Source of the DNA: an uncultured Candidatus Binatia bacterium
GTDB lineage: Bacteria; Desulfobacterota; Binatia; UBA9968; CAXXLF01
Assembly: GCA_965218425.1 (NCBI GenBank)
Contig: OZ244621.1
Coordinates: 3,008,001 to 3,072,000, forward strand
DNA: 64,000 nt
Direction of reading: 5' to 3'
Each line of letters starts with the position of its first letter. Position 1 is the first letter of the stretch. The position numbers and the translations under genes were made by a program. The notes under the pieces are model-generated. The model saw nothing but the letters and a program-made list of their open reading frames with translations. It searched no databases and was not told the origin of the DNA. Below are positions 1,808-41,436 of this stretch, piece by piece.

Positions 1808-2602
1808 TTACTGGACCCGCGCAGCCGCCTGATAGTACCCATCGTAGCTGACCCACTGACGCGCGATGGACCTCTCTTGATGAAGCCACATCTCTTGTTG
1901 TGCTTCTTGGGTGGTGGCTCGACTGATAACGATCTGCTTGCCGATGTCGCTGTGGTCCTCATCGGCTTCTTCATGGGAGGTGAAAAATTTCACCCCTTCC
2001 TTGGACACTTTGTATTTTTCCCTCAACACCTCCGCCCAGATGGGATAGACGATGGAGGTCACCCGTTCTCCAAGCCGCAGGTTGGTGGGCAAGCCGCCGA
2101 TTTTCTGTGTCATGGATCGTGCATGTTCGGCGGTGAGGACGATCTCAGTGATGGCCGTGGGTTTTGAAGTCATGATTTTATCTCGGGAGAGCCCCAGAGC
2201 TTCCCCGAATTGCATCCAGAGTTCCGGGTGGCTGGGCTCCCCGGAGCTTTCCACGCCCACTTCGCAGGCGAGGACCGATGCCTGTTTTTTCATTTCCTCG
2301 AGCGTAGGAGAGGTGGCCACGATCATGGCATCATTTCGGATGGTCTGAACTTTGTCGTGGTAGCCCTCTTTGGCCCACTCTCGAATTTGATTGAGACTCC
2401 ACTCGCCTTTGACCAGCTTCACGATAAATGGATGTTGCACTTTGGGTGAATTGACAAAGACCGCCTCGGCCAGTTGCGCCAGGAATTCCTCCGGAGTAAG
2501 GAAACGGCTGGGCGGAGGTGAAAATTCGGGATTGTGACGGGGTGAGGTATTGCCCTCATACATGGATTTGGCCCGTTCCCGCAACGCTACAAAGTTTTCC
2601 AT
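1808..2602 (-). CDS. Heme-oxygenase-like (PqqC/CADD/TenA fold) iron-containing redox enzyme
   Basis: HPF near N-terminus, REWAKEGY, E..EPSHPELWMQFGEALG, GE, FFTSHEEADEDH (HxxxDxxH diiron ligands). Confidence 0.8.
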   Translation of the reverse strand: MENFVALRERAKSMYEGNTSPRHNPEFSPPPSRFLTPEEFLAQLAEAVFVNSPKVQHPFIVKLVKGEWSLNQIREWAKEGYHDKVQTIRNDAMIVATSPTLEEMKKQASVLACEVGVESSGEPSHPELWMQFGEALGLSRDKIMTSKPTAITEIVLTAEHARSMTQKIGGLPTNLRLGERVTSIVYPIWAEVLREKYKVSKEGVKFFTSHEEADEDHSDIGKQIVISRATTQEAQQEMWLHQERSIARQWVSYDGYYQAAARVQ

Positions 2603-3230: not shown

Positions 3231-3764
3231 ATGGAGAGGGAAAGGGTCAGAGAGAAAGAACCCACGCAGAAGGGAGAGGGGGAGCATTACGAAGACATGT
3301 TGAAGGCTAACGCGGCGGCTAGAGAGCGAGCGAAAACCGGCAAGATCGTTATAAGGGCCAAAGATCTTCCGTGGCGGCAGTCGAGAATGGGGTATACCAA
3401 GGGATTCCTTGCCTGGAACCGTCCAAAGGACGAGGCTGCGGAAGACTGGACCGTATTCATCAAGGACCTCAAGATCCATTCAGGTAAACATCGGCATCAA
3501 GGGGGCATCCAGTTGTTCATTCTGGAAGGGGAAGGTTGCACTGTGGTGGATGGTGAACCAGTGGATTGGGAAAAATGGGACCTTATAGTCTTGCCGGTGA
3601 AGCCCAACGGCTGTGAGCACCAGCATTTCAGCAAGGTCAAAGGCATGCCATCCAAGTGGATGGCCTTCCGGTATCATCCTTTCTCCAAGGTTCTCGGAAA
3701 CATGTTTGAACACGTGGAGGATTCATCCGACTGGAAGGGTGAGAACCGGGTGGCGGGAGGCTAA
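3231..3764 (+). CDS. Small cupin, gentisate-dioxygenase-like single domain (MERERVREKEP family)
   Basis: HSGKHRHQGG..FILEGEG..W..WD..HQH. GGAGG RBS. Three close paralogs in the window. Confidence 0.85.
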   Translation: MERERVREKEPTQKGEGEHYEDMLKANAAARERAKTGKIVIRAKDLPWRQSRMGYTKGFLAWNRPKDEAAEDWTVFIKDLKIHSGKHRHQGGIQLFILEGEGCTVVDGEPVDWEKWDLIVLPVKPNGCEHQHFSKVKGMPSKWMAFRYHPFSKVLGNMFEHVEDSSDWKGENRVAGG

Positions 3765-11434: not shown

Positions 11435-12178
11435 ATGCGCTTAAAAGATAAAGTCGCCATTATTACGGGAGGAGGTGGTAAGATTGGCAAAGCCTATGCT
11501 CTGGGAATGGCCAGGGAGGGGGCAAAGCTGTGTCTCCCTGACATGGTTGATGCCACTCCGGTGGTGAAGGCCATTACAGACGTTGGTGGGGAGGCTATGA
11601 CCGTCCAGTGCGATGTCTCCGATGAGAAGAGCGTTCAGTCCATGGTGGAGGCTACCGTAAAGCGATTTGGCAGGGTGGATATTCTCGTGAACAATGCAGC
11701 CTATTTCATGAACATCAAGAAGAGTCGCTTCTGGGAAATGGAGGTGGAAGAGTTCGACAAGGCCATGGCGGTGAACGTACGAGGGGTCTGGCTTTGCGCC
11801 AAGGCCGTTTTCCCGCATATGAAAAAACAATCCAAAGGAAAGATCATTAATATTTCCTCCGGTGTGGTCCTCAACGGTACTCCTGATTACGTGCACTACG
11901 TCTCCTCTAAGGGCGCGGTCATGGCCATGACCCGTGCCATGGCTCGAGAGTTGGGAGACTACGGGATTTGCGTCAACACCATTGCCCCGGGATTTGTGGT
12001 GACGGAGGGTCGAAATGTGACTCCCGAGCAAGTAAAGAGGGCCAACGAGCGGCGTAGCTTCAAGCGGTCACAGGTGGAGGGGGATTTGGTGGGGACCATG
12101 CTGTTTCTTGCCTCTTCGGAAAGCGATTTCATGACGGGGCAGCTCCTGTCAGTGGACGGGGGCACCAATTTTCTATAG
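11435..12178 (+). CDS. Classical short-chain dehydrogenase/reductase
   Basis: TGGGGKIG, NNA, YVSSK (YxxxK), VNTIAPG, VDGG. Confidence 0.92.
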   Translation: MRLKDKVAIITGGGGKIGKAYALGMAREGAKLCLPDMVDATPVVKAITDVGGEAMTVQCDVSDEKSVQSMVEATVKRFGRVDILVNNAAYFMNIKKSRFWEMEVEEFDKAMAVNVRGVWLCAKAVFPHMKKQSKGKIINISSGVVLNGTPDYVHYVSSKGAVMAMTRAMARELGDYGICVNTIAPGFVVTEGRNVTPEQVKRANERRSFKRSQVEGDLVGTMLFLASSESDFMTGQLLSVDGGTNFL

Positions 12179-12215: not shown

Positions 12216-13241
12216 ATGGCAAAGGGATACGTTGACGCCGATGGTCATGTCATGGAAAACGAACAGGAGTTGAACGAATTCATTGAAGCCCCATTCAACA
12301 ATCGTTATGTCTCCGCGCGTCTGATGCTTCCGAGCCTCGACGAGTTTCATACCCCCAACGCTCGCCCGCGCCAGCCCGGAACCTTCGATCCGACTGTTGG
12401 GCCTGAAAGATGGCTTGAGTTCCTGGATAGGACGGACACCGATCATTCGGTGCTGTATCCCACCCTAGGGTTGGCCTATGGTCATGTGGTTTATCCTGAT
12501 TGGGCAACGGCCTTTGCCAAGGCTTACAACAATTGGCTGAGTGAAAAGTATTTGAGATTTAGCCCCCGCTTCAAGGGTATCGCACTCATCCCGATGCAGG
12601 ACGTTCCCAGCGCCGTGGCCGAGCTGAAGAGGGCAATGAAAGAACCTGGAATGGTCGGAGCCATGATCCCCTCCAACGGTCTCAAGAGGCATGTCAGCGC
12701 CCGGGAGTTCTGGCCCATTTACGAAGAGGCGGAAAGGCTGGATTGTGTGATGGCCGTGCATGGTGGGAGTTACAGCGACCTGGGGTTCAATACCTTTACG
12801 GTTTTCCCGCCCACCAGGGCGTTGGGGATGCCTGTCCCCTTGGCCATTGCAATGACGGGCATGATCGCGGACGGAGTGTTCGATCGATTCCCCAAGCTCC
12901 GGGTGGGGTTTTTAGAGGGAGGAACCAGCTGGATTCCAATGGTAATCGACCGGTTGGAGCGGGAGGTGGAGTATGGGGGGCTGCGCCTGAAGAGTTCCCC
13001 GGAGGATTATTTTCGCAACGGTAGAGTGTTTGTGGGGTGCGAAGGCAATGAGAAGGCCTTGGCCTATTCCATTGACCGCATCGGGCATGAGCCGTTTATG
13101 TTTGCTTCCGACTACCCCCACGAAATTGCCGCGGACAACGCCATGGGTGAGATTGATGAAATACTGGAGCGCAAGGACCTGAAAGAAGAACATAAGGCGG
13201 CGATCCTGGGGGAAAACGCCAAGAAGTTTTACAAGATTTGA
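12216..13241 (+). CDS. Amidohydrolase_2 family protein (decarboxylase/hydratase-like)
   Basis: DADGH, AYNNW, AVHGG, GVFDRFPKL..FLEGG, FASDYPH. Confidence 0.9.
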   Translation: MAKGYVDADGHVMENEQELNEFIEAPFNNRYVSARLMLPSLDEFHTPNARPRQPGTFDPTVGPERWLEFLDRTDTDHSVLYPTLGLAYGHVVYPDWATAFAKAYNNWLSEKYLRFSPRFKGIALIPMQDVPSAVAELKRAMKEPGMVGAMIPSNGLKRHVSAREFWPIYEEAERLDCVMAVHGGSYSDLGFNTFTVFPPTRALGMPVPLAIAMTGMIADGVFDRFPKLRVGFLEGGTSWIPMVIDRLEREVEYGGLRLKSSPEDYFRNGRVFVGCEGNEKALAYSIDRIGHEPFMFASDYPHEIAADNAMGEIDEILERKDLKEEHKAAILGENAKKFYKI

Positions 13242-13278
13242 AGGATCGACTTCAAGGCGATCATAGGGAGTGGTAATC

Positions 13279-14457
13279 GTGGCCACACATTCCTTCGATT
13301 TTGCCCGCACGGGACCCGACACCTTGGCCGGACAGTATCTGCGAAAGTTCTGGCATCCGGTCTACCGATCTCAAGATTTATCGCCCGGCAGGATGGTTCC
13401 CATACAAATCATGAGTGAAAGGTTCACGCTCTACAGGGGAGAGACGGGGACTCCCCACGTGATTGCATTTCGATGCGCCCATCGTGGAACTCAGCTATCC
13501 ACCGGTTGGGTCGAAGGGGACTCTGTTCGATGCCGTTATCATGGGTGGAAATACGATGGCTCCGGACAGTGTGTGGAACAGCCGGGTGAGGAGGAGTCTT
13601 GCGCCCCCAAGGTCCAGATTCGCAGCTACCCCACGAAGGAGTACCTAGGTCATATCTTTGCTTATCTCGGTGAAGGTGAAACCCCGCCTCTGAGGCGGTT
13701 CCCAGATTTTGAAAGGCCAGGTATTGTGGAAGCGGCGACCCCGGAGATCTGGCCCTGCAACTATTTCAGCCGGATTGAAAACGATCCAAACCACGTGCCG
13801 TTTGTCCATCGGGAGTCCCTGTTGCGAGCAGGTCGCACTGAACGACTCTTTCCACGCAAGGTTTCAGCCGAAGAGACGGAGTACGGTGTTAGAATGGGCA
13901 TGAGCGTCCCCGGAGAACCGCAAGCCTTTCTTCATTTCCACATGCCGAATATCATACAGTCGAGATCACGAGTCCGGGTAGAAGGCTCGCAGGAGGACGT
14001 GAATACCCTATGGGCGGACCGTTATCTCATGCATGTCCCCATTGACGATGAAAGTAATGTTACCTTTATCGCCGATTGGATCCCCGTTATCGGCACGGCG
14101 GCACAGAGCTATCAAAATCGGCGCCTTCAGGCGCGGAAAACCATGAGTGTCTCTCCAAATCAAATTGGGGAAGCCGTTTTAGCCGGGAAAATGCGTATCG
14201 AGGACATGGATAGAGAGACTCCTACTTATTACTCATTTTGGGTGGAGGATTACGTGTCCCTGGTGGGGCAGGGCCCCATTGCCGACCGCGCCCAGGAGCA
14301 ACTCATCCAAGCGGATATAGGAGTTGTGTTCATACGCAAGATTTGGGAGCGTGAGCTTCGCGCGCTGGCAGAAGGACTCCCCCTCAAAGAGTGGACCACG
14401 CCGCCAGGGCTGGCAGATCAGAGCGTGGTTGCGGCTCCCCAGCGGATTTCCACGTGA
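13279..14457 (+). CDS. Rieske non-heme iron oxygenase alpha subunit (third paralog)
   Basis: CAHRG...CRYHGW; ENDPNHVPFVH; EDYVSLVGQG. GTG 13279 fits the GGGAG RBS spacing. Confidence 0.92.
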   Translation: MATHSFDFARTGPDTLAGQYLRKFWHPVYRSQDLSPGRMVPIQIMSERFTLYRGETGTPHVIAFRCAHRGTQLSTGWVEGDSVRCRYHGWKYDGSGQCVEQPGEEESCAPKVQIRSYPTKEYLGHIFAYLGEGETPPLRRFPDFERPGIVEAATPEIWPCNYFSRIENDPNHVPFVHRESLLRAGRTERLFPRKVSAEETEYGVRMGMSVPGEPQAFLHFHMPNIIQSRSRVRVEGSQEDVNTLWADRYLMHVPIDDESNVTFIADWIPVIGTAAQSYQNRRLQARKTMSVSPNQIGEAVLAGKMRIEDMDRETPTYYSFWVEDYVSLVGQGPIADRAQEQLIQADIGVVFIRKIWERELRALAEGLPLKEWTTPPGLADQSVVAAPQRIST

Positions 14458-14586: not shown

Positions 14587-16008
14587 ATGGGTATCTACGA
14601 TCTTCATTCCTTCTTGGATGAATACGAGCGAGATTTCCCGGATGAGGTGGTGCATATCGAAGAACCCCTGAACGCCGCCTGGGAGATCACCGCGTTGGCC
14701 ACAAAGATGGAAAAAGCCAAACGGTTTCCTGTGATCATCTGCCATAACGTTATGGTGGAAGGCCGACGGATGGAAATGCCGCTGGTCACTTTTCTCATGG
14801 CCAGCCGAATTCGGTTGGCCCGTGCCTTGGGAACGGACATACAACAGGCGGGGGTCGCCTGCTACCAACGAGTGCAGGAGAGACGGAAGCCGCAAGTGGT
14901 TCCTCGTGGTGATGCACCGGTGAAAGAGGTGGTGGAAAAGGGCTCAAATGTGGATGTTCAGGGCTTTCCCGCCCCCCTGCACCACCGCATGGATCCGGGT
15001 CGGTACATTACGGAGGGACTGTTTCTCACACAAAACCGCAATTCTCGGTTGGACAACTCAGCCATGCATCGGGGATGGTTGTATGGGAGTGATGAAATTC
15101 AAGTATTCCTGGGGCGAAACTCCCATAATGCGGACAACCTCAGGCAGTACGAGCAGGCGGGTGAGGATATGCCCGCTGCCTACTGGGTGGGACACCATCC
15201 CCTGGTCCTGCTGGGAGCGGCAACCCATGTGGGGCCGGATGAGAGCCATTTCGAGACCGCGGGTGGTACCGTTGGTTCACCCCTTAGGCTCGTGCCGTCC
15301 GAAACCCTGGGTGAGGACTTTCTGGTGCCAGCCGATGCGGAGATCGTAATTGAGGGGTATGTCCCCAAGGGCAGTCGCAGGCCGGAGGGCCCCTTTGGTG
15401 AATACACCCGGTACGTTGGCCCCCAGCGTTGGAATCCGACCTTCAAGGTAACGGCAGTGACCCGTCGTCGCAATGCCTTTTGGGATGACGTCATGGTGGG
15501 CCATACCCATTGGATCACTAGCCTCAGCCGCGAAGGCGTCATCCTCCGAGCCATACGAAGCATCGTTCCTGGAGCGCGTGCCGTTCACCTGCCCATGTCA
15601 GGTGGTGGAGGTGTGCACGTTTACGTGCAAATTCGTAAGACTGTGGAGGGACAAGGTAAGGCTGCAGCCGTGGCGGCACTGTCATCAGGATTCGGGCATA
15701 AGCATGTGTTCGTGTTTGACGAGGATGTTGACATCTTCGATGAGAAAGAGGTGCTGCTGGCGGTTGCCATGCGGTTTCAGGCGGATCGCGGATTGATTGT
15801 GTTGCCCGGATTGACCGGCGGGGTGCTTGACCCCAGCTCTCCGGACGGAACCACCGCCACCAAGATGGGTTTTGACTGTACCAAGCCTGTGGGCACGGCC
15901 TTCGCAGAGCGTCTTTCGGTACCCCCAGAAGTATTGCAAAAGATTGACCCCTTAAAGCTGCTAAGCCGCGAGAAGTGGGAGCGTATCCCAGTGGAGCCGT
16001 GGGGCTGA
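14587..16008 (+). CDS. UbiD-family prFMN-dependent (de)carboxylase
   Basis: DPGRYIT, PADAEIVIEG, EGPFGEY, VFDEDVDIFD, LDPS, KMGFDCT. Confidence 0.92.
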   Translation: MGIYDLHSFLDEYERDFPDEVVHIEEPLNAAWEITALATKMEKAKRFPVIICHNVMVEGRRMEMPLVTFLMASRIRLARALGTDIQQAGVACYQRVQERRKPQVVPRGDAPVKEVVEKGSNVDVQGFPAPLHHRMDPGRYITEGLFLTQNRNSRLDNSAMHRGWLYGSDEIQVFLGRNSHNADNLRQYEQAGEDMPAAYWVGHHPLVLLGAATHVGPDESHFETAGGTVGSPLRLVPSETLGEDFLVPADAEIVIEGYVPKGSRRPEGPFGEYTRYVGPQRWNPTFKVTAVTRRRNAFWDDVMVGHTHWITSLSREGVILRAIRSIVPGARAVHLPMSGGGGVHVYVQIRKTVEGQGKAAAVAALSSGFGHKHVFVFDEDVDIFDEKEVLLAVAMRFQADRGLIVLPGLTGGVLDPSSPDGTTATKMGFDCTKPVGTAFAERLSVPPEVLQKIDPLKLLSREKWERIPVEPWG

Positions 16009-16152
16009 GGTGGAGCGGAACCCTGCCAGCCTTGACTCGTCTCAAGGCGGTGTGCTATGCGAAGTTGAATTCAATAGAACTTTTGTAACTCAGAGGAGTT
16101 AGTCTTGCCTGCGCCATTGGCCGGGTGATTTCATCGGCCGGAGAGACGCTTC

Positions 16153-16686
16153 ATGGAGAGAGAAAGAGTCAGAGAGAAAGAGCCGGTACAAAAAGACCGG
16201 GGAGAGCACTACGAAAACATTCTGAGACTCAACGCAGAGGCCAGGGATCGTGCCCGAAATGGAAAAATCGTTATCAAGGCCAATGAACGGCCCTGGTACC
16301 AGTGCAGACAGGGTTTGATCAAACAATACCTTTCCTGGCACGACATGGAAGACTCCGCCGCAACGGACTGGTCCTGTTTTGTTCATGATATCAAGCGTCA
16401 TTCAGGCAAACACCGACACCAGGGTGGATTCAATCTATTTGTACTCGAAGGTGAAGGGATGACTGAAGTGGATGACCAGACAGTGGAGTGGGAGAAATGG
16501 GACCTGATACTGTTGCCGGTTAAACCGGGTGGGTGCGTTCACAAACATTACAACAAAGTCGAAGGAGAACCGGCCAAGTGGATGGCTTTCAAATACAATA
16601 CCTTTTCACAGGTTTTGGGCAGTATGTTTGATCAGGTGGAAAACTCGCCGGATTATAAAGGGGAGAAAAAAGCATCATCGGCATGA
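16153..16686 (+). CDS. Small cupin (MERERVREKEP family)
   Basis: HSGKHRHQGG..FVLEGEG..HKH. Confidence 0.85.
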   Translation: MERERVREKEPVQKDRGEHYENILRLNAEARDRARNGKIVIKANERPWYQCRQGLIKQYLSWHDMEDSAATDWSCFVHDIKRHSGKHRHQGGFNLFVLEGEGMTEVDDQTVEWEKWDLILLPVKPGGCVHKHYNKVEGEPAKWMAFKYNTFSQVLGSMFDQVENSPDYKGEKKASSA

Positions 16687-16733
16687 TTTAGTTGGAATTT
16701 TAGCACAGTAGAAGTCAGCAGGGAGGTTCCTAG

Positions 16734-17219
16734 ATGGCAAAAGACTTACTCGATAATCTGTTTTCGAAACGGGATGCCTGGCGCAAGAAGATGGAAGGTG
16801 CCAGGGCCTTGATCAAGTGGAAGGATCTCAAGTGGGAGATTAACAAACAAGGCAGGTTCAAGTGGTATCTTCACCCGGATATTGAAGATATTGCCAGCCC
16901 GGCCCATTTGTTTTTTATGCAGGAGATCCTCCCCGGGAGCCGCAGCGGGAAGCAGAAGGTCCAGGGGGGGATTGTACACCACATCCTGGAAGGAAACGGT
17001 TACACCATCGTAGATGGGGTGAAACATGACTGGGAAGCCGGAGATGTGGTGGCGTTGCCATTTCTACCCGACGGCTTGGAGTATCAACACTTCAATTCCG
17101 ACCCGGAAAAGTCAGTAATGCTAGTGGCAGCCATGCCCAACTTCTTCGACGTTTTCGGGGTGGACATGGGATCGGGTTTTGAACAACTCGAGGCCTGTCC
17201 CGAGTATCAGGCCGGCTAG
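16734..17219 (+). CDS. Cupin partner protein lacking the HxH metal motif
   Basis: SRSGKQKVQGG aligns to HSGKHRHQGG; HILEGNG..WEAGD..YQH. Confidence 0.8.
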   Translation: MAKDLLDNLFSKRDAWRKKMEGARALIKWKDLKWEINKQGRFKWYLHPDIEDIASPAHLFFMQEILPGSRSGKQKVQGGIVHHILEGNGYTIVDGVKHDWEAGDVVALPFLPDGLEYQHFNSDPEKSVMLVAAMPNFFDVFGVDMGSGFEQLEACPEYQAG

Positions 17220-17478
17220 GGTCTATTACTCTCAGCTGTTTTCGACGGGAAAGCGCGGGGTGGTCCCTTTTCTCAGTTGGTCTTGTGGTTCGCGGAGCGG
17301 AAGACCATCTGACCTTTTTAAGGCAACACCTTCGCCGTCTCCATACTTAACCGCCATTGGAATCAGTGAACCTGACCCACGGGTTTGTATGAAATCCGAG
17401 GGTCTCGGCCGGATTGTATGGGTGTCGAGTTGTGTGTTTGGAATGCCGGCAATAAATTCATGCGGCATAAGCTAGTTT

Positions 17479-19029
17479 ATGCATTTGGAAACATCCATTG
17501 CTGAGCCTCAGTTCCCGGCGTTCAATCTTCACGAGGGGCACTGGGACGAAGATGAGTTCTCAGAGGCCATGGACATCGCCCTGGGTGATGAATTTCTCTA
17601 CGGCAAGACCGACCTGGTCAAGGTTACCAGTATGGGCGTGCACATCGGCTCGGCAACGACCCATCTTGGAATCAGCAAGCTTTCTTTGCGCAAAGGCGGC
17701 AAGAATCTATCCAGTAAATCTGTGGTCAAAAGCAGAGAGATCTTTTACGAGTCTGCGGTGATTTCGACCCCGTTTCAAGATGACGGGCAGCTCCATGGGA
17801 AACAACTGAAAGCGTTTATTGAAAGTTCTTATAACGAGGCCCGCCTTGTGGGTCATCTGATCGAGACCGGAGTGGTGGTGATGAGTGGTAAGGCGACTGG
17901 GCCGAAAAATCTATCCGTGGTTGAAGAAGTGTTGGGACAGGAAAAGAGTCGGCTTCTTTTTGTTTCAGAGGGTTTGAAATTGCAGGCCATGCTGGCCGCA
18001 TTGGGGGCGGGAGCCGTGGAAAAATCCGGCAATGAGAAAAAAAGAGTCCTCAACGTGGACCTTGGAGCCGACGGAATCAGATTCGCATGGGTGGCCAATG
18101 GGTCCTTTGAGAATTTTTACTTTACCCGGGCCGGGGCGAAGGTGCTGGACATGGATGAGCAGGGGGAATTGACTCATTTGAGTGAGACGGGGCAGAAGAT
18201 AGCGGCTCAACTAGGTCTCAAGCTGCAGGCGGGCAAGCCGGTATCACGTTCCGAGAAACAGGCGCTGGGCAGGTTTCTGGCCGAGACCTTGCTTGACTAC
18301 CTGGAGGGGGAAAGTGTCTCAGAAAAAGGTAAGATCATATTCGACTCGACTCCTCCGCCCTTGGACAAGGTGGATTTCGTCCAGTTCTCCGGTGGGGTGG
18401 CTGAGTTTGTCTATGGTTACGAGAGTCAACCAGGAGTAGACGTTGGCTTTGATTGGGGAACCGCAATTCGTAAACGAGCACCCAGACTGGGTGTCAAAAT
18501 GGGAGTGCTGACACCCGGAAACCGGGTGCGTGCAACTCCGGTGGGGGTAGCCCTTTACTCGACTCCTGTGCCCCCTGAATCTTTCTTCTGCTCCCATGGC
18601 CATGTCCATGGTTTGAAAAATCTATTGGTGGTTTCTCCAAAGTTTGAGCCGGGATTGAAGAATGCAGAGGGCACCCAAAAAGAGATTGAAAAGGCACTCT
18701 CCCGTTTTGAGCTTCTTAACGGCTCGAGACAACCCTTTGCCTTGTCCATGGATTTGGTTGAAGGGCAGGACTCCGATGAGGCCGTCACCATGGGACTTTC
18801 CTCTGCCCTGGGCCATCTGTGGAATCATGACTTCCCCCTGGTCTTGGTGGGTGAATCGGATGCGCCATGTCGCCTCGCCAGAGAACTGGCCGCTCGAAAT
18901 CCGGATAACAATGGTAGTTTCATCGGGTTGAGTGGGCTCCATGCACACGATATGGACTTCATTGAAGTCCGAAACGCGGATCCAAATGGTGAGGTGCCGG
19001 TGCTGGTTCGTTCCATGGTGTTTCGGTGA
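17479..19029 (+). CDS. EutA-like (ethanolamine ammonia-lyase reactivase family) actin-fold protein with degenerate motifs
   Basis: SMGVHIGSATTH (EutA: SVGIDIGTTTT), Y.S.V..TP, TGVVVMSG, MLAALGAGA, NVDLG, FSGGVAE, RATPVG, C-terminal VPVLVRSMVF. Confidence 0.75.
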   Translation: MHLETSIAEPQFPAFNLHEGHWDEDEFSEAMDIALGDEFLYGKTDLVKVTSMGVHIGSATTHLGISKLSLRKGGKNLSSKSVVKSREIFYESAVISTPFQDDGQLHGKQLKAFIESSYNEARLVGHLIETGVVVMSGKATGPKNLSVVEEVLGQEKSRLLFVSEGLKLQAMLAALGAGAVEKSGNEKKRVLNVDLGADGIRFAWVANGSFENFYFTRAGAKVLDMDEQGELTHLSETGQKIAAQLGLKLQAGKPVSRSEKQALGRFLAETLLDYLEGESVSEKGKIIFDSTPPPLDKVDFVQFSGGVAEFVYGYESQPGVDVGFDWGTAIRKRAPRLGVKMGVLTPGNRVRATPVGVALYSTPVPPESFFCSHGHVHGLKNLLVVSPKFEPGLKNAEGTQKEIEKALSRFELLNGSRQPFALSMDLVEGQDSDEAVTMGLSSALGHLWNHDFPLVLVGESDAPCRLARELAARNPDNNGSFIGLSGLHAHDMDFIEVRNADPNGEVPVLVRSMVFR

Positions 19030-19110
19030 TGGCCGCAACTCGTAACGAGAGAGTGCTTTTATTGAATTTGATCAATAGAATGCTAAATGGGATGAATTTG
19101 AGAAAATTTT

Positions 19111-19265
19111 TTGCGTTAAGACGCCAAGGCGCAAAGAAAAAATTTTTGTTGTTTCCAATCTTGGCGTGCTTTGTGGTTCGACCAGGCTCGCCACCCTGAG
19201 TCCATCGAAGGGCGTCTTTGCCCCTCGATTCCCCTTGGGGTCCTGAGGCTCTCGAAGGACGCGAG
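19111..19265. repeat. Inverted REP-like pair with two nested 39-nt inserts
   Basis: Host CTTGGCGTGCTTTG^CGTCTTTG^CGCGAG carries inserts at 19174-19212 and 19221-19259. Inverted partner at 19111-19136. Confidence 0.75.
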
Positions 19266-19353
19266 CCGTCTTGTTCCGGATTCGGAACGCCGGTTTAGAG
19301 CTCACAGGTGAATTTACATATAGCTAGGACAGCAAAATGAGGGAGGAAGGTTC

Positions 19354-21513
19354 ATGGCGGTTTTCTTGCAGGTAGAAGAGTGTCCTGCCGCCTATTCGGC
19401 TCAGGGACGTGTGCTTCTGGATCCGGAGATCATGAAAAAAAACGGTATCAAAGCGGACGATGCCGTGGAGGTGGAGACCAACAATGGCCGGAGTGTTCTG
19501 GCGCGGGTGGCCAAGCCACAAGAAGAGGATGAAGGGAAGAAATACATCCGCATGGATCAGTACCTCAGGCATTCCACCAAGAGCCTCTTGGGTGACTGGG
19601 TTTCGGTGGTTCCCATTCAGATGAAGACGGTAAGCAGGGTTACCCTCGCTCCCTTCGTTAATATCTCTGACATCAAAGGGGTCGATGCCTATCTGATCAA
19701 GAATTTTGCCTCTAAGGGATTGCTGGTCAGTGACGGGCAGGTCCTCTACGCGACGTTGCCGGGGCAGAGTCAGGGCACCGCGTTCAAGGTCACTGAGATT
19801 GAGCCGGAAGCCGGCCTGATGACGGCAGAAACAAAACTCGACCTGGACTATGTGTTCTCGTCATGGGGCCAGGTCTCGGATCAGGTCACCTTTGAGGACG
19901 TAGGAGGTCTCCAAAAGGAAATCGGTCTTATACGGGAACTGGTGGAACTCCCGTTGCTCTTTCCGGATGTCTTTCGTCACCTTGGCATCAATCCGCCCCG
20001 TGGAATTATCCTGTACGGTCCGCCGGGGAGCGGCAAGAGCCACACGGCCAGGGCCATTGCCAATGAGATCAATGCAAAGTTTCTTTACATCAATGGTCCC
20101 GATATCGTGAGCTCGGTGTATGGTGAGACGGAATCCAACTTGCGTAAAATTTTTGAGGAGGCGTCCCATCATCTCCCTTCGATCATTTTTATTGACGAGG
20201 TGGACGCCATCGCACCTATGCGGGGGGAAAGCGGCTCGCATTCCGACACCCGGATGGTGGGCCAGCTTTTGGAGTTGATGGACGGCCTTAACCGAGTAGA
20301 GGGGATAATAGTCCTGGGGACCACCAATAGGGTGGAGTCTCTGGACAAGGCCATACGACGTCCCGGCCGATTCGATAGAGAGATCTTCATTGGACCGCCC
20401 GATGCTCAAGGGAGATTGGAGATACTACAGATCCATAGCCGGGGCATGCCGCTTGCCGAAGGAATATTTGAGACCTTGAGGGAGGTGGCACGTGTTACCC
20501 ATGGCTTTGTGGGGGCGGACCTGATGGAGCTGTGTCGTGAGAGCGGGCTGAACTGCCTGAGAAGGATCATGGGGGATCGGCGCCTTTCGCCGGCACGATT
20601 CAAGGTAGGTCTCGACGATCTGGTGGTTACGGGTGAGGATTTTACCAAGGCCGCAGGCCTGATTCGACCCTCTGCCATGCGGGAGACCATCACCAGCATT
20701 CCTGATGTTGGATGGGACGACATCGGCGGATTGGAAGTGGTCAAGAATAAACTTCGCGATCTGGTGGAAAAGCCGCTGGTGGACCCGGAGGCCTTTCGCG
20801 CAACGAATATCCGTCCCCCCACTGGAATTCTCCTCTATGGACCTCCGGGTACAGGGAAGACCCTTCTAGCCAAGGCCATCGCACGGGAGTCGGGGGCGAA
20901 CTTCCTCTATATCCGGGGGCCTGAGGTGTTCAGTAAGTGGCTGGGAGAATCGGAAGAGAGTGTTCGTCACGCCTTTCAGGTGGCCCGGCAGGTGGCCCCA
21001 GCGGTCATTCTATTCGATCAAATCGATGCCATTGCTCCAAGCCGGCGCGCCGACAGTGATACGAAGGCTTCCGAACGGGTCGTCAACCAAATCCTGACCG
21101 AAATGGATTCCATTGATAACTATAGTCGCATTGTCGTGGTGGCGGCATCCAACCGGCTGGATTTGTTGGATCCGGCAATTCTTCGACCTGGACGATTTGG
21201 GGTCCACATTCACGTGCCCCTACCTGAGTTGACCGATCGTAAAGCTATCCTGGAGTCCAAATTGAAGAAGGCTTCGTTCAAGAACAACGATAATCGAAAG
21301 AAGGTTGTCGTTGAAGTGGCAGAAAAAACTGAAGGGTTCTCAGGCGCTGAGCTTGAAGCGCTTTGCAATGAAGCACAGCTCATCTCCCTCAAGGAAAACA
21401 ACTATGCAGGAACAAATAAACTTGAGGTGATTCATTTCCTTCGGGCGCTGGACGATATGGAAAAGGCCCGGGAGATCTACCACGCCGAGAAGAAGGAATT
21501 GTCCCTGAGTTGA
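19354..21513 (+). CDS. Cdc48/p97/VAT-family double AAA+ ATPase with N-domain
   Basis: N-domain (..IRMD..LR..), TFEDVGG, ELVELPL, GPPGSGKS, IFIDEVD, RRPGRFD, PSAMRE, WDDIGG, GPPGTGKT, SKWLGESE, LRPGRF. Confidence 0.92.
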   Translation: MAVFLQVEECPAAYSAQGRVLLDPEIMKKNGIKADDAVEVETNNGRSVLARVAKPQEEDEGKKYIRMDQYLRHSTKSLLGDWVSVVPIQMKTVSRVTLAPFVNISDIKGVDAYLIKNFASKGLLVSDGQVLYATLPGQSQGTAFKVTEIEPEAGLMTAETKLDLDYVFSSWGQVSDQVTFEDVGGLQKEIGLIRELVELPLLFPDVFRHLGINPPRGIILYGPPGSGKSHTARAIANEINAKFLYINGPDIVSSVYGETESNLRKIFEEASHHLPSIIFIDEVDAIAPMRGESGSHSDTRMVGQLLELMDGLNRVEGIIVLGTTNRVESLDKAIRRPGRFDREIFIGPPDAQGRLEILQIHSRGMPLAEGIFETLREVARVTHGFVGADLMELCRESGLNCLRRIMGDRRLSPARFKVGLDDLVVTGEDFTKAAGLIRPSAMRETITSIPDVGWDDIGGLEVVKNKLRDLVEKPLVDPEAFRATNIRPPTGILLYGPPGTGKTLLAKAIARESGANFLYIRGPEVFSKWLGESEESVRHAFQVARQVAPAVILFDQIDAIAPSRRADSDTKASERVVNQILTEMDSIDNYSRIVVVAASNRLDLLDPAILRPGRFGVHIHVPLPELTDRKAILESKLKKASFKNNDNRKKVVVEVAEKTEGFSGAELEALCNEAQLISLKENNYAGTNKLEVIHFLRALDDMEKAREIYHAEKKELSLS

Positions 21514-21585
21514 TCAAGCAAAGCGTTGATTTCGGGTGAGTCGGACAGGCCGTATTGATTCATTCCCAGGAAGAAGAGGGGGGAC

Positions 21586-22332
21586 ATGGCGAAACAGTCA
21601 ATAGTGAAGGATTTAAAAGATCGATTAATGGATGGAATCAAGGTGTTAACAGGGGAACAGGTTTTGACCGGCTCGGGGCATCTAAGCGTCAGAATCCCGG
21701 GAACGGATACTTTCTTGATCAACCCCAGGTACGCGGGAATTCTTGCCGACGTCAAGGATATCTGCACGGTCAACATGTCCGGCCAACGAGTTTCGGGTTC
21801 GGAGCCCATCCCCCTGGAAATACCCATTCACGCCGTGGTGTATCGGGCCAGGCATGACGTCATGAGTGTCCTTCACTGTCACGCCCGCTATGCCGTCATG
21901 GTGGGACTGCTGGATTCGGGGCTGGTCCCGTTTCACCGGGAGGCCAGGGCCTTCGAGGCCGGCGTGCCCGTATTTCCCGACAGCAACGGAATCAACAATG
22001 CGGCTCTTGCTCAACGGATGGTGGAGAGCCTGGGGTGGCACTCCGCAGTGTTTCTCAGGGGACATGGGATCGTTGTGACAGGAAAGAGCATAGAAGGGAC
22101 CTGTGTCTCCGCCATTCAGTTGGAGCGGGCCTGTGCGGATCAACTCCTCATGTCGAGTTCCACAACCATCAAGCCCTTAACCGAGGAATACACCACCAAG
22201 GTGCCGGGCAAGGATGAGAATCCCTACCGGGCCTGGCCATTCCTCCTGTATAAACACAAGGTCAGGTCCCGGCAGGCGATCAAATCCACCACGAAGAAAA
22301 TGATCAAAACCTTGTGGCCGGATGAGAGGTAA
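21586..22332 (+). CDS. Class II aldolase/adducin family protein
   Basis: GHLSVR, PLEIPIH, VLHCH, LRGHG metal-binding motifs. Confidence 0.9.
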   Translation: MAKQSIVKDLKDRLMDGIKVLTGEQVLTGSGHLSVRIPGTDTFLINPRYAGILADVKDICTVNMSGQRVSGSEPIPLEIPIHAVVYRARHDVMSVLHCHARYAVMVGLLDSGLVPFHREARAFEAGVPVFPDSNGINNAALAQRMVESLGWHSAVFLRGHGIVVTGKSIEGTCVSAIQLERACADQLLMSSSTTIKPLTEEYTTKVPGKDENPYRAWPFLLYKHKVRSRQAIKSTTKKMIKTLWPDER

Positions 22333-22463
22333 TCAGATGAGCTGCTTTCTTTCGGCCCGTAAAACACAATTAAAGCGTCGTTTAGTTTCTTTCTGGAATG
22401 AAAACATTTCTTAGGCACCTAATCATTGGGCACCGTTTTGTAGGATAAATACTACAAAACGTA

Positions 22464-22846
22464 TCAACCCAACCTCTTTAATTCCGCTTCCGCCTGCTCC
22501 AACCACAATCCCATTTGCATTGCCCGTATCATTGAGATTGCAGTCGTGAGGTGTCTCTTTGCTTGCTCCGGATTATCTATCCGCCGATACAGTCTTCCCG
22601 GACCGAGATGACACTGGGCCATGGGCGGGCGCGTGCCGAGTTCTTCAGCAAGGGCGAGAGCTTGATGATAGTAGTCTTCAGCTTCCCCCAACACTAGGGG
22701 GATCCATTAGCCCCGCCAGCGGATAGCCCTTGGTGAGCCACGCCATAGGGAGCGAATCGCCTTGAAGTCTCCTGCCGCTCTGACCCACGACCTCCTCTAG
22801 GAGCTCGATAGCCTGGGCGACCCGACCTGAGTTGAGATACAAGGGA
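22464..22846 (-). pseudogene. C-terminal TPR remnant of an adenylate/guanylate cyclase-AAA-TPR protein, truncated at IS481
   Basis: AEDYYHQALALAEELGTRP..AQCHLG.GRLYR..AK.HLTTA..M.RAM.M..WLEQAEAEL is the characteristic C-terminus. The upstream part lies in another frame and ends at the IS. Confidence 0.7.
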
Positions 22847-30882: not shown

Positions 30883-31413
30883 TCAAGCGGGGGCCTTTTC
30901 TTCACCCTTCCAATCGGGGGAGTTCTCCACCTGCTCGAACATGTTTCCCAGCACCTTAGCAAATGGGTTGTAGCGGAAGGCCATCCACCTGGCGGGCGCC
31001 CCTTTGACTTTATTGTAGTGCTTGTGGGTACAGCCTTCGGGCTTCACCGGCAGGATAATCAGGTCCCACTTGTCCCATTCCACTCTCTGATTGTCCAATT
31101 CCGTATGTCCTTCACCTTCGAGGACAAATATCTGAATTCCTCCCTGGTGCTTGTGCTTTCCTGAATGGACCTTGATATCATGAATAAAACAGGTCCATTC
31201 GGTAGCCGCCGTGTCATCATGACCGTGCCAGGAAAGAAAGGTCTTCGTTAAGCCCTGGCGACCCTGGTGCCAGGGACGCTCCTTGGCCTTGATTACGATC
31301 TTGCCCGACTTGGCACGATCCCTGGCCTCGGCGTTTAACCTCAGCGTGTTCTCGTAGTGCTCTCCCTGGTCTTTCTGTACGGGCTCTTTCTCTCTTACCC
31401 TTTCCCTCTCCAT
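30883..31413 (-). CDS. Small cupin (MERERVREKEP family), tandem copy
   Basis: HSGKHKHQGG..HKH. Start at ATG 31413 with AAGGAG RBS. Confidence 0.85.
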   Translation of the reverse strand: MERERVREKEPVQKDQGEHYENTLRLNAEARDRAKSGKIVIKAKERPWHQGRQGLTKTFLSWHGHDDTAATEWTCFIHDIKVHSGKHKHQGGIQIFVLEGEGHTELDNQRVEWDKWDLIILPVKPEGCTHKHYNKVKGAPARWMAFRYNPFAKVLGNMFEQVENSPDWKGEEKAPA

Positions 31414-31459
31414 GTTCAAAACTCCTTTTTTCGGTACTAAATGACCTAGTCCGTGCGGA

Positions 31460-31993
31460 TCAAGCCGAGGTACTTTTTTCTTCACCCTTCCAATCAGGAG
31501 AGTTCTCCACTTGATCAAACATGTTGCCAAGCACACTAGTAAACGGATGATACCGAAAGGCCATCCACTTGGCAGGTGAACCTTTTACCTTATTATAGTG
31601 TTTGTGGGTGCAGCCATTGGGTTTCACGGGGAGGATGATCAGGTCCCATTTCTCCCACTCAACTTTTTCATTATCCACTTCTGTATATCCGTCCCCTTCG
31701 AGAACAAACAACTGGATTCCACCCTGGTGCCGATGTTTTCCCGAATGGGCTTTCACGTCATGGATAAAGCATGTCCAGTCTTGTGCAGCCGTGTCATCCA
31801 TGTCATGCCAGGCGAGGTATGATTTGATAAACCCCTGTTTGCCTTGACTCCAGGGGCGCTCTTTGCCCTTGATGACGATCTTGCCTTTCTTGGCACGTTC
31901 CCTGGCCTCGGCGTTGAGTCTCAATGTGTTTTCGTAATGCTCTCCCTGGTCTTTTTGTACCGGTTCTTTCTCTCTGACTCGTTCTCTCTCCAT
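31460..31993 (-). CDS. Small cupin (MERERVREKEP family), tandem copy
   Basis: HSGKHRHQGG..HKH. AAGGA RBS. Confidence 0.85.
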   Translation of the reverse strand: MERERVREKEPVQKDQGEHYENTLRLNAEARERAKKGKIVIKGKERPWSQGKQGFIKSYLAWHDMDDTAAQDWTCFIHDVKAHSGKHRHQGGIQLFVLEGDGYTEVDNEKVEWEKWDLIILPVKPNGCTHKHYNKVKGSPAKWMAFRYHPFTSVLGNMFDQVENSPDWKGEEKSTSA

Positions 31994-38902: not shown

Positions 38903-39868
38903 ATGGCTCCTGCTCCGGTTATGGTCATTGGCGGGTCCGGTTTTCTCGGCTCCCACGTTTGCCTCGAGCTGGCTGAGAAAAGTATCGACGTCATCTCCTT
39001 TGACGTTCAAGCCCCTGATTTCGAGGTGCCTAAATCGACCCCTGGTTCCATAAGGTCCGTTGTGGGGGATATTTTGGACCCGAAATCGTTGTCCGATTGT
39101 GTTCGTGACCTTGGCGTCGGCGCAATCATTCATACTGTGGCCTTCGGTAACGAGGCTGCCGCAAGACAGAGTCCCCATCCTGCGATTACACTGAATGTTC
39201 AAGGCACCTTGAACGTTTTGGAGGCGGCTAGGAAAAACGAGATCCAAAGGCTTGTTTATATCAGTACCGCCGGGGTCTACGGCAAACAAAGCGAAGAAGC
39301 TCCCATCAAGGAAGACCAGGCCATCACCTGGCGGGGAACCATCTATCATCCGAGCCATTACATGGGCGAAATCCTGGTGGAGATGTTTCACCAGGTCTAC
39401 GGTGTGCAGGGGGTTATTCTCCGTCCCCTGTCACTCTACGGGCCCGCCCTCTCATCGAACAAGGACAAACACCTAAGGACAAAATCTCTGTTCCTGGGAG
39501 GGTGGATTAAGCAGGCCCTTAAGGGAGAGGTCACGGAGATCCATCATGCGGACACTCTCACTGATCTTACCTACGTAAAGGACTTGGCCACCGCGGTATT
39601 GTTGGCCTATGCCACGCCAAAATTAAAGCAATGGGTGTTTAACATTAGCTCGGGGGTTCTGGTGTCCTATAGAGACATTGCCCTAGCCATTCAGAACAAT
39701 CTACCCAGTGCGGAATTTGAGTTTCACCCGGGAACACAGGACAACCCCCTAAGGCCCAACCGAGGCCCGTTGGATATTTCCAGGGCCAAAGAGGAGTTTC
39801 AGTTCGTGCCGCAGTATGATCTACAGCACGGGATGCATAAATTTATTGCTTGGTGTATGGCTGGTTAA
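38903..39868 (+). CDS. NAD-dependent epimerase/dehydratase with an atypical catalytic motif
   Basis: GGSGFLG, NVQGT.NV, ST..VYG. YHPSH replaces YxxxK. Confidence 0.82.
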   Translation: MAPAPVMVIGGSGFLGSHVCLELAEKSIDVISFDVQAPDFEVPKSTPGSIRSVVGDILDPKSLSDCVRDLGVGAIIHTVAFGNEAAARQSPHPAITLNVQGTLNVLEAARKNEIQRLVYISTAGVYGKQSEEAPIKEDQAITWRGTIYHPSHYMGEILVEMFHQVYGVQGVILRPLSLYGPALSSNKDKHLRTKSLFLGGWIKQALKGEVTEIHHADTLTDLTYVKDLATAVLLAYATPKLKQWVFNISSGVLVSYRDIALAIQNNLPSAEFEFHPGTQDNPLRPNRGPLDISRAKEEFQFVPQYDLQHGMHKFIAWCMAG

Positions 39869-39900
39869 GCGAAGGCTGGAAGCATTTTTGGAGGAAAGGG

Positions 39901-40626
39901 ATGGACGTCGTCATGTCGGAATCAAATGTAGGAACCTTTAATGAATATGAGAAATGGTGGGATCAGGAAGCGAAACCGCTATATGAGAAGTGGATGGCGC
40001 TGCCATTTTTTACTGACCTACGGGCTGGAAAACTCACGGAAGAACGACTCAAGACATGGCTGGGTAACTGGTACGGCCATGTGCAGGAAGGCGATATGCA
40101 TCGGGCTCTCCTGTGGTCCAGGCACCATTACATTCTCGGGCGGTTCCCCGAAATGGAGGAAATTGTTACCGAGAGAGCTGGAAAATCCCTCAACTATCCT
40201 TACCCGGGCGGGCAGGTGCGTGGCCTTCTCAAATTGAGCGACGCTTTGGGAGTGAGCCACCAGCAGTTACTTCAGTCCCGTACAGGCCCATTCACGGTTC
40301 ACCTCACCAGTTTTCTGAAATCCTTGTATCTGGAAGGAACCTTGGCAGAATCTGCCTCTCAACTCATTGGGGAAGAGTATCTTTTGCAATTTTGCGAACT
40401 ATTCCAGGAGGCCCTTGGCAAACCCCCTTTTAAACTCAAGGGCGATGCGTTGGACTATTTTAAATTTTGGAAAAGATGCTTGCTGATGGACCATGGCAGT
40501 CCAGGAAGGTTCCTTCTCAAGTCTCTTTTTGATAAAGGGCTGGTGGAGGAGCGACCCAACGCGGGTATCAGGCATGTGGGAAAGAGGTACGCCGAATATT
40601 TGATCCGAGTGTATCAAAGTCTTTAA
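39901..40626 (+). CDS. Heme-oxygenase-like fold protein with degenerate metal ligands
   Basis: Aligns with 40669 (TF..Y..W, PFF, PGG, DHG.PG..LL..L...GLV). The E/H ligands are replaced (KSL..PGGQ; YFKFWKRCL). Confidence 0.7.
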   Translation: MDVVMSESNVGTFNEYEKWWDQEAKPLYEKWMALPFFTDLRAGKLTEERLKTWLGNWYGHVQEGDMHRALLWSRHHYILGRFPEMEEIVTERAGKSLNYPYPGGQVRGLLKLSDALGVSHQQLLQSRTGPFTVHLTSFLKSLYLEGTLAESASQLIGEEYLLQFCELFQEALGKPPFKLKGDALDYFKFWKRCLLMDHGSPGRFLLKSLFDKGLVEERPNAGIRHVGKRYAEYLIRVYQSL

Positions 40627-40668
40627 TAACAGGCTTTTGCTATAAATTTTCTCTAAAGGGGACAACCT

Positions 40669-41436
40669 ATGGCCGGTGAGCTAGTGCAATTTCCTACCTT
40701 CCAGTCTTTTAAATCCTGGTTTGACGAAAAGACGAAGACTCATCCTTTTAAAACAGGGAAGGAGCGGGGGCGTTTTTATGATGATTTCGCCCAGGGAAAA
40801 GTCCCCAGGGATTTTTTGAAGGAGTATGCCAAGCAATACTATATCTTTATACAGCTAACCAATACCAACGTGACTTGGACCATTGTGAACTACCTGGATC
40901 TGTGGCGTAAAAACCCTGATCTCTACGATATCGTGGCTTCGAAGATCGGATCCGAGCTGGCTGACCCCAGACCAGGCGGCCATGGTCGTACCTATATAAA
41001 ATTCGCACGCTACCTGGGTCTGAAGGACGAAGACCTCCATTACTCAAAGCCCATCCCGGAGCTGGAGGCCCGTTTCAACACTGCCCTCGTTTACCGGTCG
41101 CAGAGTCCTGCGCTGACCGCAGTCAGGTGGATGTTGGAAGGATTTGTCGGATACAGCATGAAGTTTTGGCGTGACGTCCTGCATGAAAAATACGACATTC
41201 CCGATGAGCTGCTGGAGTATTGGGATATTCACGTAGTGGCAGATCTAGAGGAGCATGGACCAGAGGGCGAACTGCTACTTGCCAGGCTGTATAAACTCGG
41301 CCTGGTTAGGGAAGACGATTACGATGGAATGAAGGTGCAGGTGGATAGGGCTGTGGAAGGGGCGCGTCCAGGAAGCAAGACTCTCCCGTGGCCCGACGCC
41401 CTCTACGCCAGTTACTGTGAGCGCCACCCGCAATGA
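40669..41436 (+). CDS. Heme-oxygenase-like diiron (CADD/PqqC-like) redox enzyme
   Basis: HPF, EYAKQYY, SELADPRPGGH, EGFVG, YWDIHVVADLEEH. Confidence 0.8.
   Translation: MAGELVQFPTFQSFKSWFDEKTKTHPFKTGKERGRFYDDFAQGKVPRDFLKEYAKQYYIFIQLTNTNVTWTIVNYLDLWRKNPDLYDIVASKIGSELADPRPGGHGRTYIKFARYLGLKDEDLHYSKPIPELEARFNTALVYRSQSPALTAVRWMLEGFVGYSMKFWRDVLHEKYDIPDELLEYWDIHVVADLEEHGPEGELLLARLYKLGLVREDDYDGMKVQVDRAVEGARPGSKTLPWPDALYASYCERHPQ

Follow-up and report, generated by a model that had tools for sequence, protein, structure and literature searches.

A Cdc48-like ATPase of bacteria travels with a predicted split bicupin: a candidate ATP-dependent helper of a catabolic metalloenzyme

The DNA analysed here (the window) is a stretch of 64,000 nucleotides from an uncultured Candidatus Binatia bacterium (assembly GCA_965218425.1, contig OZ244621.1, positions 3,008,001 to 3,072,000 of the forward strand), which carries a run of catabolic genes including two small cupin genes (cupA and cupB) followed by genes for a EutA-like protein (EutA*) and a Cdc48-like ATPase (Cdc48*). 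An earlier interpretation of the bare sequence (the sequence-only reading) had proposed that EutA* and Cdc48* form a dedicated quality-control or cofactor-exchange system, e.g., for damaged prenylated flavin (prFMN) in UbiD or for oxidised iron centres in cupins or Rieske enzymes. We found that the conserved partner of Cdc48* is the cupin pair, not UbiD. Judged by their sequences, Cdc48* belongs to a distinct bacterial clade and is not a canonical Cdc48, and both EutA* and Cdc48* are altered at catalytic positions, which the sequence-only reading had overlooked. The comparison covered 61 related genomes of the same order, samples of Chloroflexota and Alphaproteobacteria, and metagenome, plasmid and viral sequences; G000 denotes the genome of the window, G001, G002, etc. 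its relatives, and L numbers individual loci.

Cdc48* loci were picked by a DNA motif for the signature of the second ATPase domain (D2) alone, and their neighbours were counted afterwards. The motif matched 17 of the 144 collected loci, all of the Cdc48* type, and at least 120 sites in metagenome contigs (80 with flanking sequence and 40 without); L160 (GC 0.22, broken frames, not a member) was excluded, leaving 79 metagenome loci, and the counts on these loci hold for the matches listed. A member of the large cupin clan lay within 2 kb in 27 of the 30 loci flanked on each side by 1.5 kb or more, in 45 of the 63 with one flank of that length, and beside 52 of the 79 overall; after clustering at 90% identity, 36 of 49 clusters were cupin-linked, as were 15 of 18 when the threshold was 70%. 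Translational coupling or gaps below 300 bp were seen in 38 of the 63. The other neighbours were much rarer: UbiD was near 9 of the 79 loci (6 of the 30 well-flanked ones), Rieske oxygenases near 11 (8 of 30), amidohydrolases near 8 (7 of 30), EutA near one (1 of 30) and class II aldolases near none. As a background we used the 202 Rieske and amidohydrolase genes of the window genome, where UbiD was found within 4.5 kb of 38, a cupAB gene within 4.5 kb of 15, and any family cupin within 2 kb of 38. The frequency of UbiD beside Cdc48* is at this background level. At one Cdc48* locus (L152:915-1865), the cupin closest by, two genes upstream, is of the ChrR-like Cupin_7 kind and lies outside the clan. 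Among viral contigs, the only motif match (L265) had no Cdc48 frame and was taken as chance.

The genome of the window (4.46 Mb, a single contig, 97% complete) shows an extreme catabolic expansion, with 72 UbiD, 85 Rieske and 117 amidohydrolase matches besides 103 members of the cupin clan, nine EutA-like genes and one Cdc48. Because UbiD, Rieske and amidohydrolase paralogues are so numerous, adjacency to UbiD or Rieske genes means little alone. Of the clients first proposed, the iron centres of cupins are the ones favoured by the data, whereas UbiD with its prFMN and Rieske enzymes show background-level linkage. We consider it very improbable that EutA* and Cdc48* work jointly to replace the damaged prFMN of UbiD or to mend Rieske centres, even though UbiD adjoins the unit in the window, in G002 and in the distant loci L149, L162, L171, L182 and L186, two alphaproteobacterial EutA-like genes directly follow UbiD (L359, L369), and EutA and Cdc48* co-occur at the genome level in Chloroflexota. 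The well-flanked counts (UbiD 6, Rieske 8 and EutA 1 against cupin 27) argue otherwise, as do one relative (G061, genome possibly incomplete) with cupA-cupB-Cdc48* and no EutA match and six alphaproteobacterial genomes that have EutA-like genes and no Cdc48* motif.

Among the 61 relatives, Cdc48* was found in eight (nine loci, the copy of G013 being partial), and a cupin stood at all nine loci, compared with none of the four canonical Cdc48 loci of the same order. Canonical loci overall, taken from the matches listed in a search with Cdc48* that returned mostly canonical Cdc48 or FtsH-like loci, had a cupin in 0 of 32 cases, a weak control as they are mostly archaeal. The D2 motif was present in 8 of 301 Chloroflexota genomes sampled, with an adjacent cupin in six of these eight loci, and in 0 of 351 Alphaproteobacteria genomes sampled. 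A plasmid search with Cdc48* gave 53 records, all at most 45% identical (D2 motif not checked). The layout of the loci varies widely (A-B-Cdc48*, B-Cdc48*-A, convergent genes, fused AB, and arrays of 4-6 bicupins); since gene order and orientation differ among loci, the link between cupins and Cdc48* has outlived rearrangement. G001 holds a canonical Cdc48 of 755 aa (L061, G001:C6) in addition to Cdc48*; the window genome has only Cdc48*.

Cdc48* consists of an N domain (PF02359) and two AAA domains (2 x PF00004), the layout of Cdc48, VAT and p97, and scores below the cut-off of the CDC48 model TIGR01243 (720 vs 803 bits). The first ATPase domain (D1) is complete (K228, D281-E282, N325, R336/R339), with a pore loop that reads SSVYG in place of the canonical K-aromatic pair. 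D2 retains the Walker A lysine K502, the pore residue W529, sensor 1 (N600) and the arginine fingers R611/R614, and its Walker B motif reads DQ, with Q556 in place of the catalytic Glu. In the alignment the C-terminal tail of canonical Cdc48 is missing. A profile built from the N domain only retrieved 109 proteins, with named sources in Alpha-, Beta- and Deltaproteobacteria, Methylomirabilis, Acidobacteria and Chloroflexi; D2 read FDQ in 103 of them, the six others being unmatched (four short, two full-length), and the D1 DE was retained in 106. A quick IQ-TREE tree, built with 58 sequences chosen to represent 106 full-length ones, placed the 29 rows with Q or H on one side of a branch with an SH-aLRT of 100, separate from canonical Cdc48. 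The equivalent E-to-Q variant of Cpa binds ATP without hydrolysing it, according to the part of the source consulted (PMC6017811), which suggests that D1 of Cdc48* is the motor and that its D2 ring probably has a structural role.

One alternative is that Cdc48* works as an unfoldase for general quality control in bacteria rich in oxygenases and stays with cupins through a shared mobile or co-regulated block. The patchy spread of Cdc48* would fit, the D2 pore Trp is retained, and seven of the eight Chloroflexota carriers are among 13 genomes with orphan EutA-like genes, as if they shared one lifestyle. We give this explanation little credence, because all neighbours other than the cupins change while the cupins persist, on either side and on either strand, because the canonical Cdc48 of the same order lacks cupins, and because the catalytic Glu of D2 is lost clade-wide.

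The cupin partner can be described in some detail. CupA carries H87-x-H89 and H130-x-H132, of which H87 and H89 are invariant and H130 and H132 are present in at least 90% of 24 Cdc48*-linked CupA homologues. Its model has a cupin fold (pLDDT 85.5), the best PDB match of its profile is gentisate 1,2-dioxygenase (3bu7, E 6.8e-21), and its closest solved relatives are gentisate and salicylate 1,2-dioxygenases. CupB is a paralogue (the two profiles align at probability 100) without the HxH motif and the third His, only H119 being conserved, and natural CupA-CupB fusion proteins exist (e.g., L056, L161, L184, L186). By its residues CupAB is a split bicupin with one predicted three-His metal site, one domain holding the triad and the other being metal-free, as in the gentisate dioxygenase-like bicupins. 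The equivalog model for gentisate dioxygenase, TIGR02272, was not reached, with 17 and 16 bits for the two cupins and 32 bits for a fused CupAB paralogue against a cut-off of 442. CupAB is probably an oxygenase, ring-cleaving or of a related kind, in a pathway for aromatic acids, which would fit its neighbours (Rieske, SDR, decarboxylases and aldolases). Arrays of 3-6 tandem bicupins ending in one Cdc48* occur at L057, L058, L059, L150 and L191; the C-terminal domain of these bicupins carries the metal motif HxH...EE...H. A complex prediction for CupA, CupB and the Cdc48* N domain scored 0.00 in two runs (three alignments of 24 rows, controls not folded) and was not used.

The cupins might also serve as adaptors or as carriers of metal that recruit the ATPases to UbiD, Rieske enzymes or amidohydrolases, and not be clients themselves. 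cupA-type genes do outnumber cupB-type genes in the window genome (at least ten, often in tandem, with few cupB partners), which is odd for a heterodimeric enzyme, and UbiD lies within 2 kb of 4 of the 13 cupAB genes compared with 28 of 202 for the background. CupA nevertheless has a complete three-His site and also the second His seen in gentisate dioxygenases, and no other enzyme family stands beside Cdc48* above background; we see a slim chance for this explanation.

We propose that CupA and CupB together make up one gentisate-dioxygenase-like enzyme that has a single three-His metal site, and that this cupin family has Cdc48* as its own accessory motor. In the Cdc48* hexamer, D2 would bind ATP and hold the ring and D1 would hydrolyse, as Q556 suggests; the motor would grip and open the cupin, so that metal is loaded, or spent metal or a stuck product is released. 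We regard the idea that ATP hydrolysis drives loading or repair at the metal site of the cupins as about evenly poised between right and wrong. Several observations weigh against it. Three of the 30 well-flanked metagenome loci (L172, L215, L220) and two of the eight Chloroflexota loci have no cupin of the family nearby, and the loci of both Cdc48* and the cupins are related by descent, the counts being descriptive and not independent. A CupB profile matched 22 of the 61 relatives, 15 of which have no Cdc48* match, and a small AAA protein (see below) is found in only five of these 15; the link is one-way, and the cupins can do without Cdc48*. The EutA orthologue most similar to EutA* lies without a cupin at all 27 loci from the order, and His-rich starts are rare in Cdc48* (at least three His in the first 30 residues in 5 of 109). 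Finally, we know of no function for CupAB-type cupins, and the literature searched yielded no paper on inactivation or reactivation of gentisate-type cupins.

A different use of the same ATPase would be in the catalytic cycle or the assembly of the enzyme, where it would build the A/B heterodimer or strip a tightly bound product or inhibitor in every turnover, as Rubisco activases do. The linkage of Cdc48* and cupins and the close spacing of their genes would serve this explanation equally well, and His-rich tails are not general in Cdc48*. The 15 CupB-positive genomes without a Cdc48* match mean that Cdc48* is not an obligatory subunit, there is one Cdc48* for 13 cupAB genes in the window genome, and His-rich parts recur in the other two ATPase families; we therefore hold assembly or product release to be unlikely.

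The EutA-like protein of the window is a member of the EutA family, with a match to PF06277 along its whole length (E 2.8e-56, residues 48-515), although it stays below the NCBIfam EutA equivalog cut-offs (best 143.6 bits vs 598). Its model has an ASKHA fold with matches to FtsA, PPX and PilM (best FtsA, Z 13.8, rmsd 5.0, 239 residues aligned); a single-sequence PDB search gave no hits and a profile only weak MreB/FtsA matches, and the diol dehydratase reactivase DdrA was not among the Foldseek or VIA-align matches shown, which does not exclude it. Among the nine EutA-like copies in the genome, EutA* diverges most (192 bits vs 325-417). Three true EutA controls keep both ASKHA phosphate loops (DxGxxT and DxGGGT/S), which are altered in EutA*: the first reads HIGSAT, with H55 in place of Asp, and the second DLGADG, with GGGT changed to GADG at 196-199. 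In addition, a Glu is replaced by Q169 and H488-x-H490 has been gained, the adenosine motif FSGG (303-306) being intact. The same changes mark a subfamily of 22 clusters (43-100% identity), in which the phosphate-1 Asp is His in 21 of 21 members covering the site, the Glu aligned with the MreB EEA motif is Gln in 21 of 21, and the phosphate-2 Thr is Gly and the new HxH near the C-terminus is present in 22 of 22, with the adenosine motif retained. Actin has Gln at the position of the MreB EEA Glu and yet hydrolyses ATP, so that the argument for an impaired EutA* rests on the Asp and GGT losses. The dN/dS of EutA* against G001 is 0.15 (neighbouring genes 0.045-0.062; two other EutA pairs 0.062 and 0.132), and the gene is thus maintained under selection; with 22 intact or partial relatives, decay to a pseudogene was rejected. 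On these residues, EutA* has probably lost most of its ATPase activity and may have been retained as a metal-binding or scaffolding helper beside Cdc48*.

That EutA* is an orphan was borne out: no EutB or EutC was detected among the 50 window proteins scanned (50 of 65 open reading frames of at least 150 aa) or in the whole 97%-complete genome, where the E. coli positive control was detected, and EutB is missing from all 61 relatives, although all 61 carry EutA-like genes. As a general two-part module, EutA plus Cdc48 found no support, considering the single EutA near the 79 metagenome loci and an adjacency in 3 of 9 related loci, all of one family; among the genomes compared, EutA* lies between cupB and Cdc48* only in G000, G001 and G002. 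What stands of the proposed helper role is that both ATPases look dedicated to a catabolic metalloenzyme.

A survey of EutA-like genes, as the sequence-only reading had suggested, gave cupins within 1.5 kb of 7 of the 9 copies in the window genome and at 11 of 13 alphaproteobacterial loci sampled; in Chloroflexota, where 30 of 52 matches were examined, 17 of the 30 loci had one. EutA-like genes thus pair separately with bicupins in three lineages, and EutA-like/bicupin pairs also occur on plasmids of Phyllobacterium and Sinorhizobium; cultured carriers among the rhizobia are Phyllobacterium zundukense (NZ_CP104971) and Sinorhizobium chiapasense (NZ_CP133152). Their cupins mostly belong to a different subfamily from CupAB, with 63 members in the window genome. 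EutB was found in only 2 of 21 outside genomes with EutA-like genes, exactly those whose eutA precedes eutB; neither a cupin nor a His-rich extension is present at these two true eutA-eutB-eutC loci, and two haloarchaeal plasmid matches are true eutBCA. Many orphan EutA-like proteins have His/acid-rich tails; the 50 residues that precede the first motif hold up to 13 His, and as many as 31 His follow the last motif.

Further observations concern individual EutA-like genes. The cupin-less orthologue (G000:C1:961788-963416, L027-L053) occupies one syntenic spot across the order, has a His-rich C-terminal tail and is often followed by a gene of the metallo-beta-lactamase fold. A paralogue at G000:C1:1738881-1740388 lies in two frames (113 + 384 aa), by frameshift or assembly error, behind an intact bicupin. 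A NicO-family nickel transporter (L369:2938-3675) is encoded downstream of one alphaproteobacterial EutA-like gene, and a YjbE-family putative metal transporter (L266:10523-11164) two genes behind that of Phyllobacterium. No EutA-cupin fusion was found among 8000 candidates (five longer proteins, none with a cupin); EutA-like fusions of other kinds (P0110-P0114) comprise four MFS-EutA proteins, one named Pseudonocardiaceae, and one methyltransferase-EutA. A supposed Cdc48 beside the EutA-like gene of L332 is FtsH-like.

A third kind of ATPase was met in three relatives without a Cdc48* match (G023, G043, G049), in which cupA-cupB is followed by a gene for a 285-aa single-domain AAA protein and then by another bicupin. 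This small AAA occurs in 7 of the 61 relatives (not in G000) and in 4 of the 301 Chloroflexota, all four among the 13 with orphan EutA-like genes, and directly adjoins a cupin in 7 of 7 loci of the relatives and 3 of 4 of Chloroflexota (10 of 11, the miss being at a contig end). With a Walker B motif FDDVE and His-rich inserts, it is, as far as its sequence tells, an undescribed-looking family unrelated to the EutA-like and Cdc48* ATPases; among representatives clustered at 50% identity, it has 31 relatives at E 1e-30. Mutual exclusion of Cdc48* and the small AAA was rejected, as G013, G160, G205 and G214 have both. Three unrelated ATPase families are thus encoded beside one cupin clan, and the EutA-like ASKHA ATPases and the small AAA may do for sister cupin subfamilies what Cdc48* would do for CupAB, EutA* being a catalytically impaired, possibly metal-holding helper. 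To our knowledge, cupin dioxygenases are not thought to require ATP-driven maturation or repair; the three independent ATPase partners suggest that a very large cupin family does. A bolder version, in which the whole clan needs servicing of its metal sites by three unrelated motors and EutA* and Cdc48* have merged, in this one family, into a single machine (the pseudo-ATPase EutA* holding metal through its new histidines, Cdc48* supplying force), is doubtful in our view; if true, it would make Cdc48* the first protein of the Cdc48/p97 type to act as a metallochaperone to an enzyme of metabolism.

The arrangement resembles several known systems in part. EutA, the reactivating factor of adenosylcobalamin-dependent ethanolamine ammonia-lyase (EutBC), removes damaged cofactor from this enzyme, as described in the section of the source consulted (PMC5821096), and the kin of EutA* likely share this logic of an ATPase that opens a partner enzyme for cofactor exchange. 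The EutA-like proteins of the window genome differ in having no EutBC, a cupin as partner, multiple copies and an N-terminal His/acid extension, and EutA* itself in the loss of the phosphate-1 Asp and the phosphate-2 GGT and the gain of HxH. Like archaeal VAT/Cdc48, eukaryotic p97 and actinobacterial Cpa, Cdc48* is laid out as N-D1-D2 and keeps sensor 1, the arginine fingers and the Walker A motif of both rings, being 39-45% identical to canonical members; it differs in its separate clade, the Q or H of the D2 Walker B, the missing tail, a D1 pore loop without the canonical K-aromatic pair in most members, and its cupin neighbours. A 20S proteasome was not found in the window genome, where the sole PF00227 match is HslV; Cpa, in the excerpt consulted, is a proteasome interactor encoded with psd/pssA (PMC6017811). 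In PEX1/PEX6 the asymmetry is the opposite, with a degenerate D1 (PMC6862443, a source seen in part).

NSF/Sec18 is likewise a type II AAA+ protein for one client class, as proposed for Cdc48*, and its D2 hydrolyses poorly. Cdc48* differs in being bacterial, nearer to Cdc48 in sequence, without a SNAP-like adaptor seen, and with the D2 pore Trp retained; NSF/Sec18 loads its substrate in the D1 pore, in the part of the report consulted (PMC6160233). The functional model for the proposed servicing of cupins may be NorQ/NorD, in which AAA+ ATP hydrolysis puts non-heme iron into a partner enzyme, as far as the portion consulted goes (10.1101/2022.11.16.516607). NorQ/NorD involves the MoxR clade, a VWA adaptor and a membrane client, whereas here a classical-clade double ring would act on a soluble cupin; Cdc48* and the small AAA match classical AAA and not the MoxR clade, and no VWA family was seen among the 50 scanned window proteins (distant loci not scanned for VWA). 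The gentisate and salicylate 1,2-dioxygenase bicupins (3bu7, 2phd, 2d40) have the three-His site in one domain and a metal-free second domain, as predicted for CupAB, which differs in being split in two genes and in its low TIGR02272 score; we know of no ATPase partner for these dioxygenases. The CupAB-ATPase system is akin to ATP-driven enzyme activases and metallochaperones and is not a EutA, canonical Cdc48 or MoxR/VWA system. The statement that no system with such a role had been described agrees with our literature search, which lay mostly outside subscription journals and supplements and found no published Cdc48-cupin or EutA-cupin system.

Cdc48 and p97 are known as unfoldases of general scope that work with ubiquitin or the proteasome. 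A bacterial Cdc48 clade wired to one metabolic enzyme family, with its second ring naturally locked, would offer a simple, ubiquitin-free system for dissecting the roles of the rings. Dependence on ATPases could explain why such cupins have stayed uncharacterised and indicates which proteins to co-express. It also follows for annotation that most genes named eutA in these lineages are unrelated to ethanolamine or B12.

The nine genes of the run are co-oriented on the plus strand with intact reading frames, in the order first described (Table 1). The run is not tightly coupled, with gaps of 259 bp between cupB and the EutA-like gene and 324 bp before Cdc48*. A scan for promoters and terminators was uninformative, with 4 and 13 sites vs 8.0 and 14.9 in shuffles. 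The repeat in the 324-bp spacer has 15 blastn matches in the genome including itself, the best others being 89-93% identical.

Table 1. Features of the gene run in the window, with an example of the small AAA gene from a relative
Feature	Position	Strand	Remarks
SDR gene	11435-12178	+	upstream catabolic context; 44 paralogue matches in genome
Amidohydrolase (amidohydrolase-2) gene	12216-13241	+	upstream catabolic context; 117 paralogue matches in genome
Rieske oxygenase gene	13270-14457	+	upstream catabolic context; 85 paralogue matches in genome
UbiD-family decarboxylase	14587-16008	+	pathway context; one of 72 paralogues; not a conserved part of the module
Cupin CupA	16153-16686	+	predicted metal-binding half of split gentisate-dioxygenase-like bicupin; module core, presumed client
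Cupin CupB	16734-17219	+	CupA paralogue, predicted metal-free partner half; module core
EutA-like protein EutA*	17479-19029	+	EutA-family ASKHA-fold protein; lineage-restricted insertion into cupin-Cdc48* unit
Spacer with dispersed REP-like repeat (~19212-19286)	19030-19353		324 bp; not module-specific
Cdc48-like protein Cdc48*	19354-21513	+	N-D1-D2 AAA+ ATPase; module core
Class II aldolase / 3,4-dihydroxyphthalate-decarboxylase-like	21586-22332	+	PF00596; NF053537 below cut-off; local pathway context
Small AAA (example)	L299:816-1688 (G043:C137); also L345-L358		

The same gene layout is found at L065, with an 88%-identical Cdc48, and the class II aldolase gene is also downstream of Cdc48* in G001 and G002; in G001, UbiD is parted from cupA by about 5 kb of inserted genes. 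An IS481 transposase gene follows the run at 22925, and just before it (22400-22760) is a remnant resembling the end of a TPR/adenylate-cyclase-type gene, a related broken gene being present downstream of the aldolase in G001. Three further cupA-type genes without a cupB partner occur in the window (3231-3764 and 30883-31993), two of them in tandem behind a DHDPS-like aldolase and divergent from UbiD. Five genes for heme-oxygenase-like/TenA diiron enzymes are scattered among the Rieske, UbiD and cupin genes of the window (1808-2602, 39850-41436, 44449-45219, 54224-54994).

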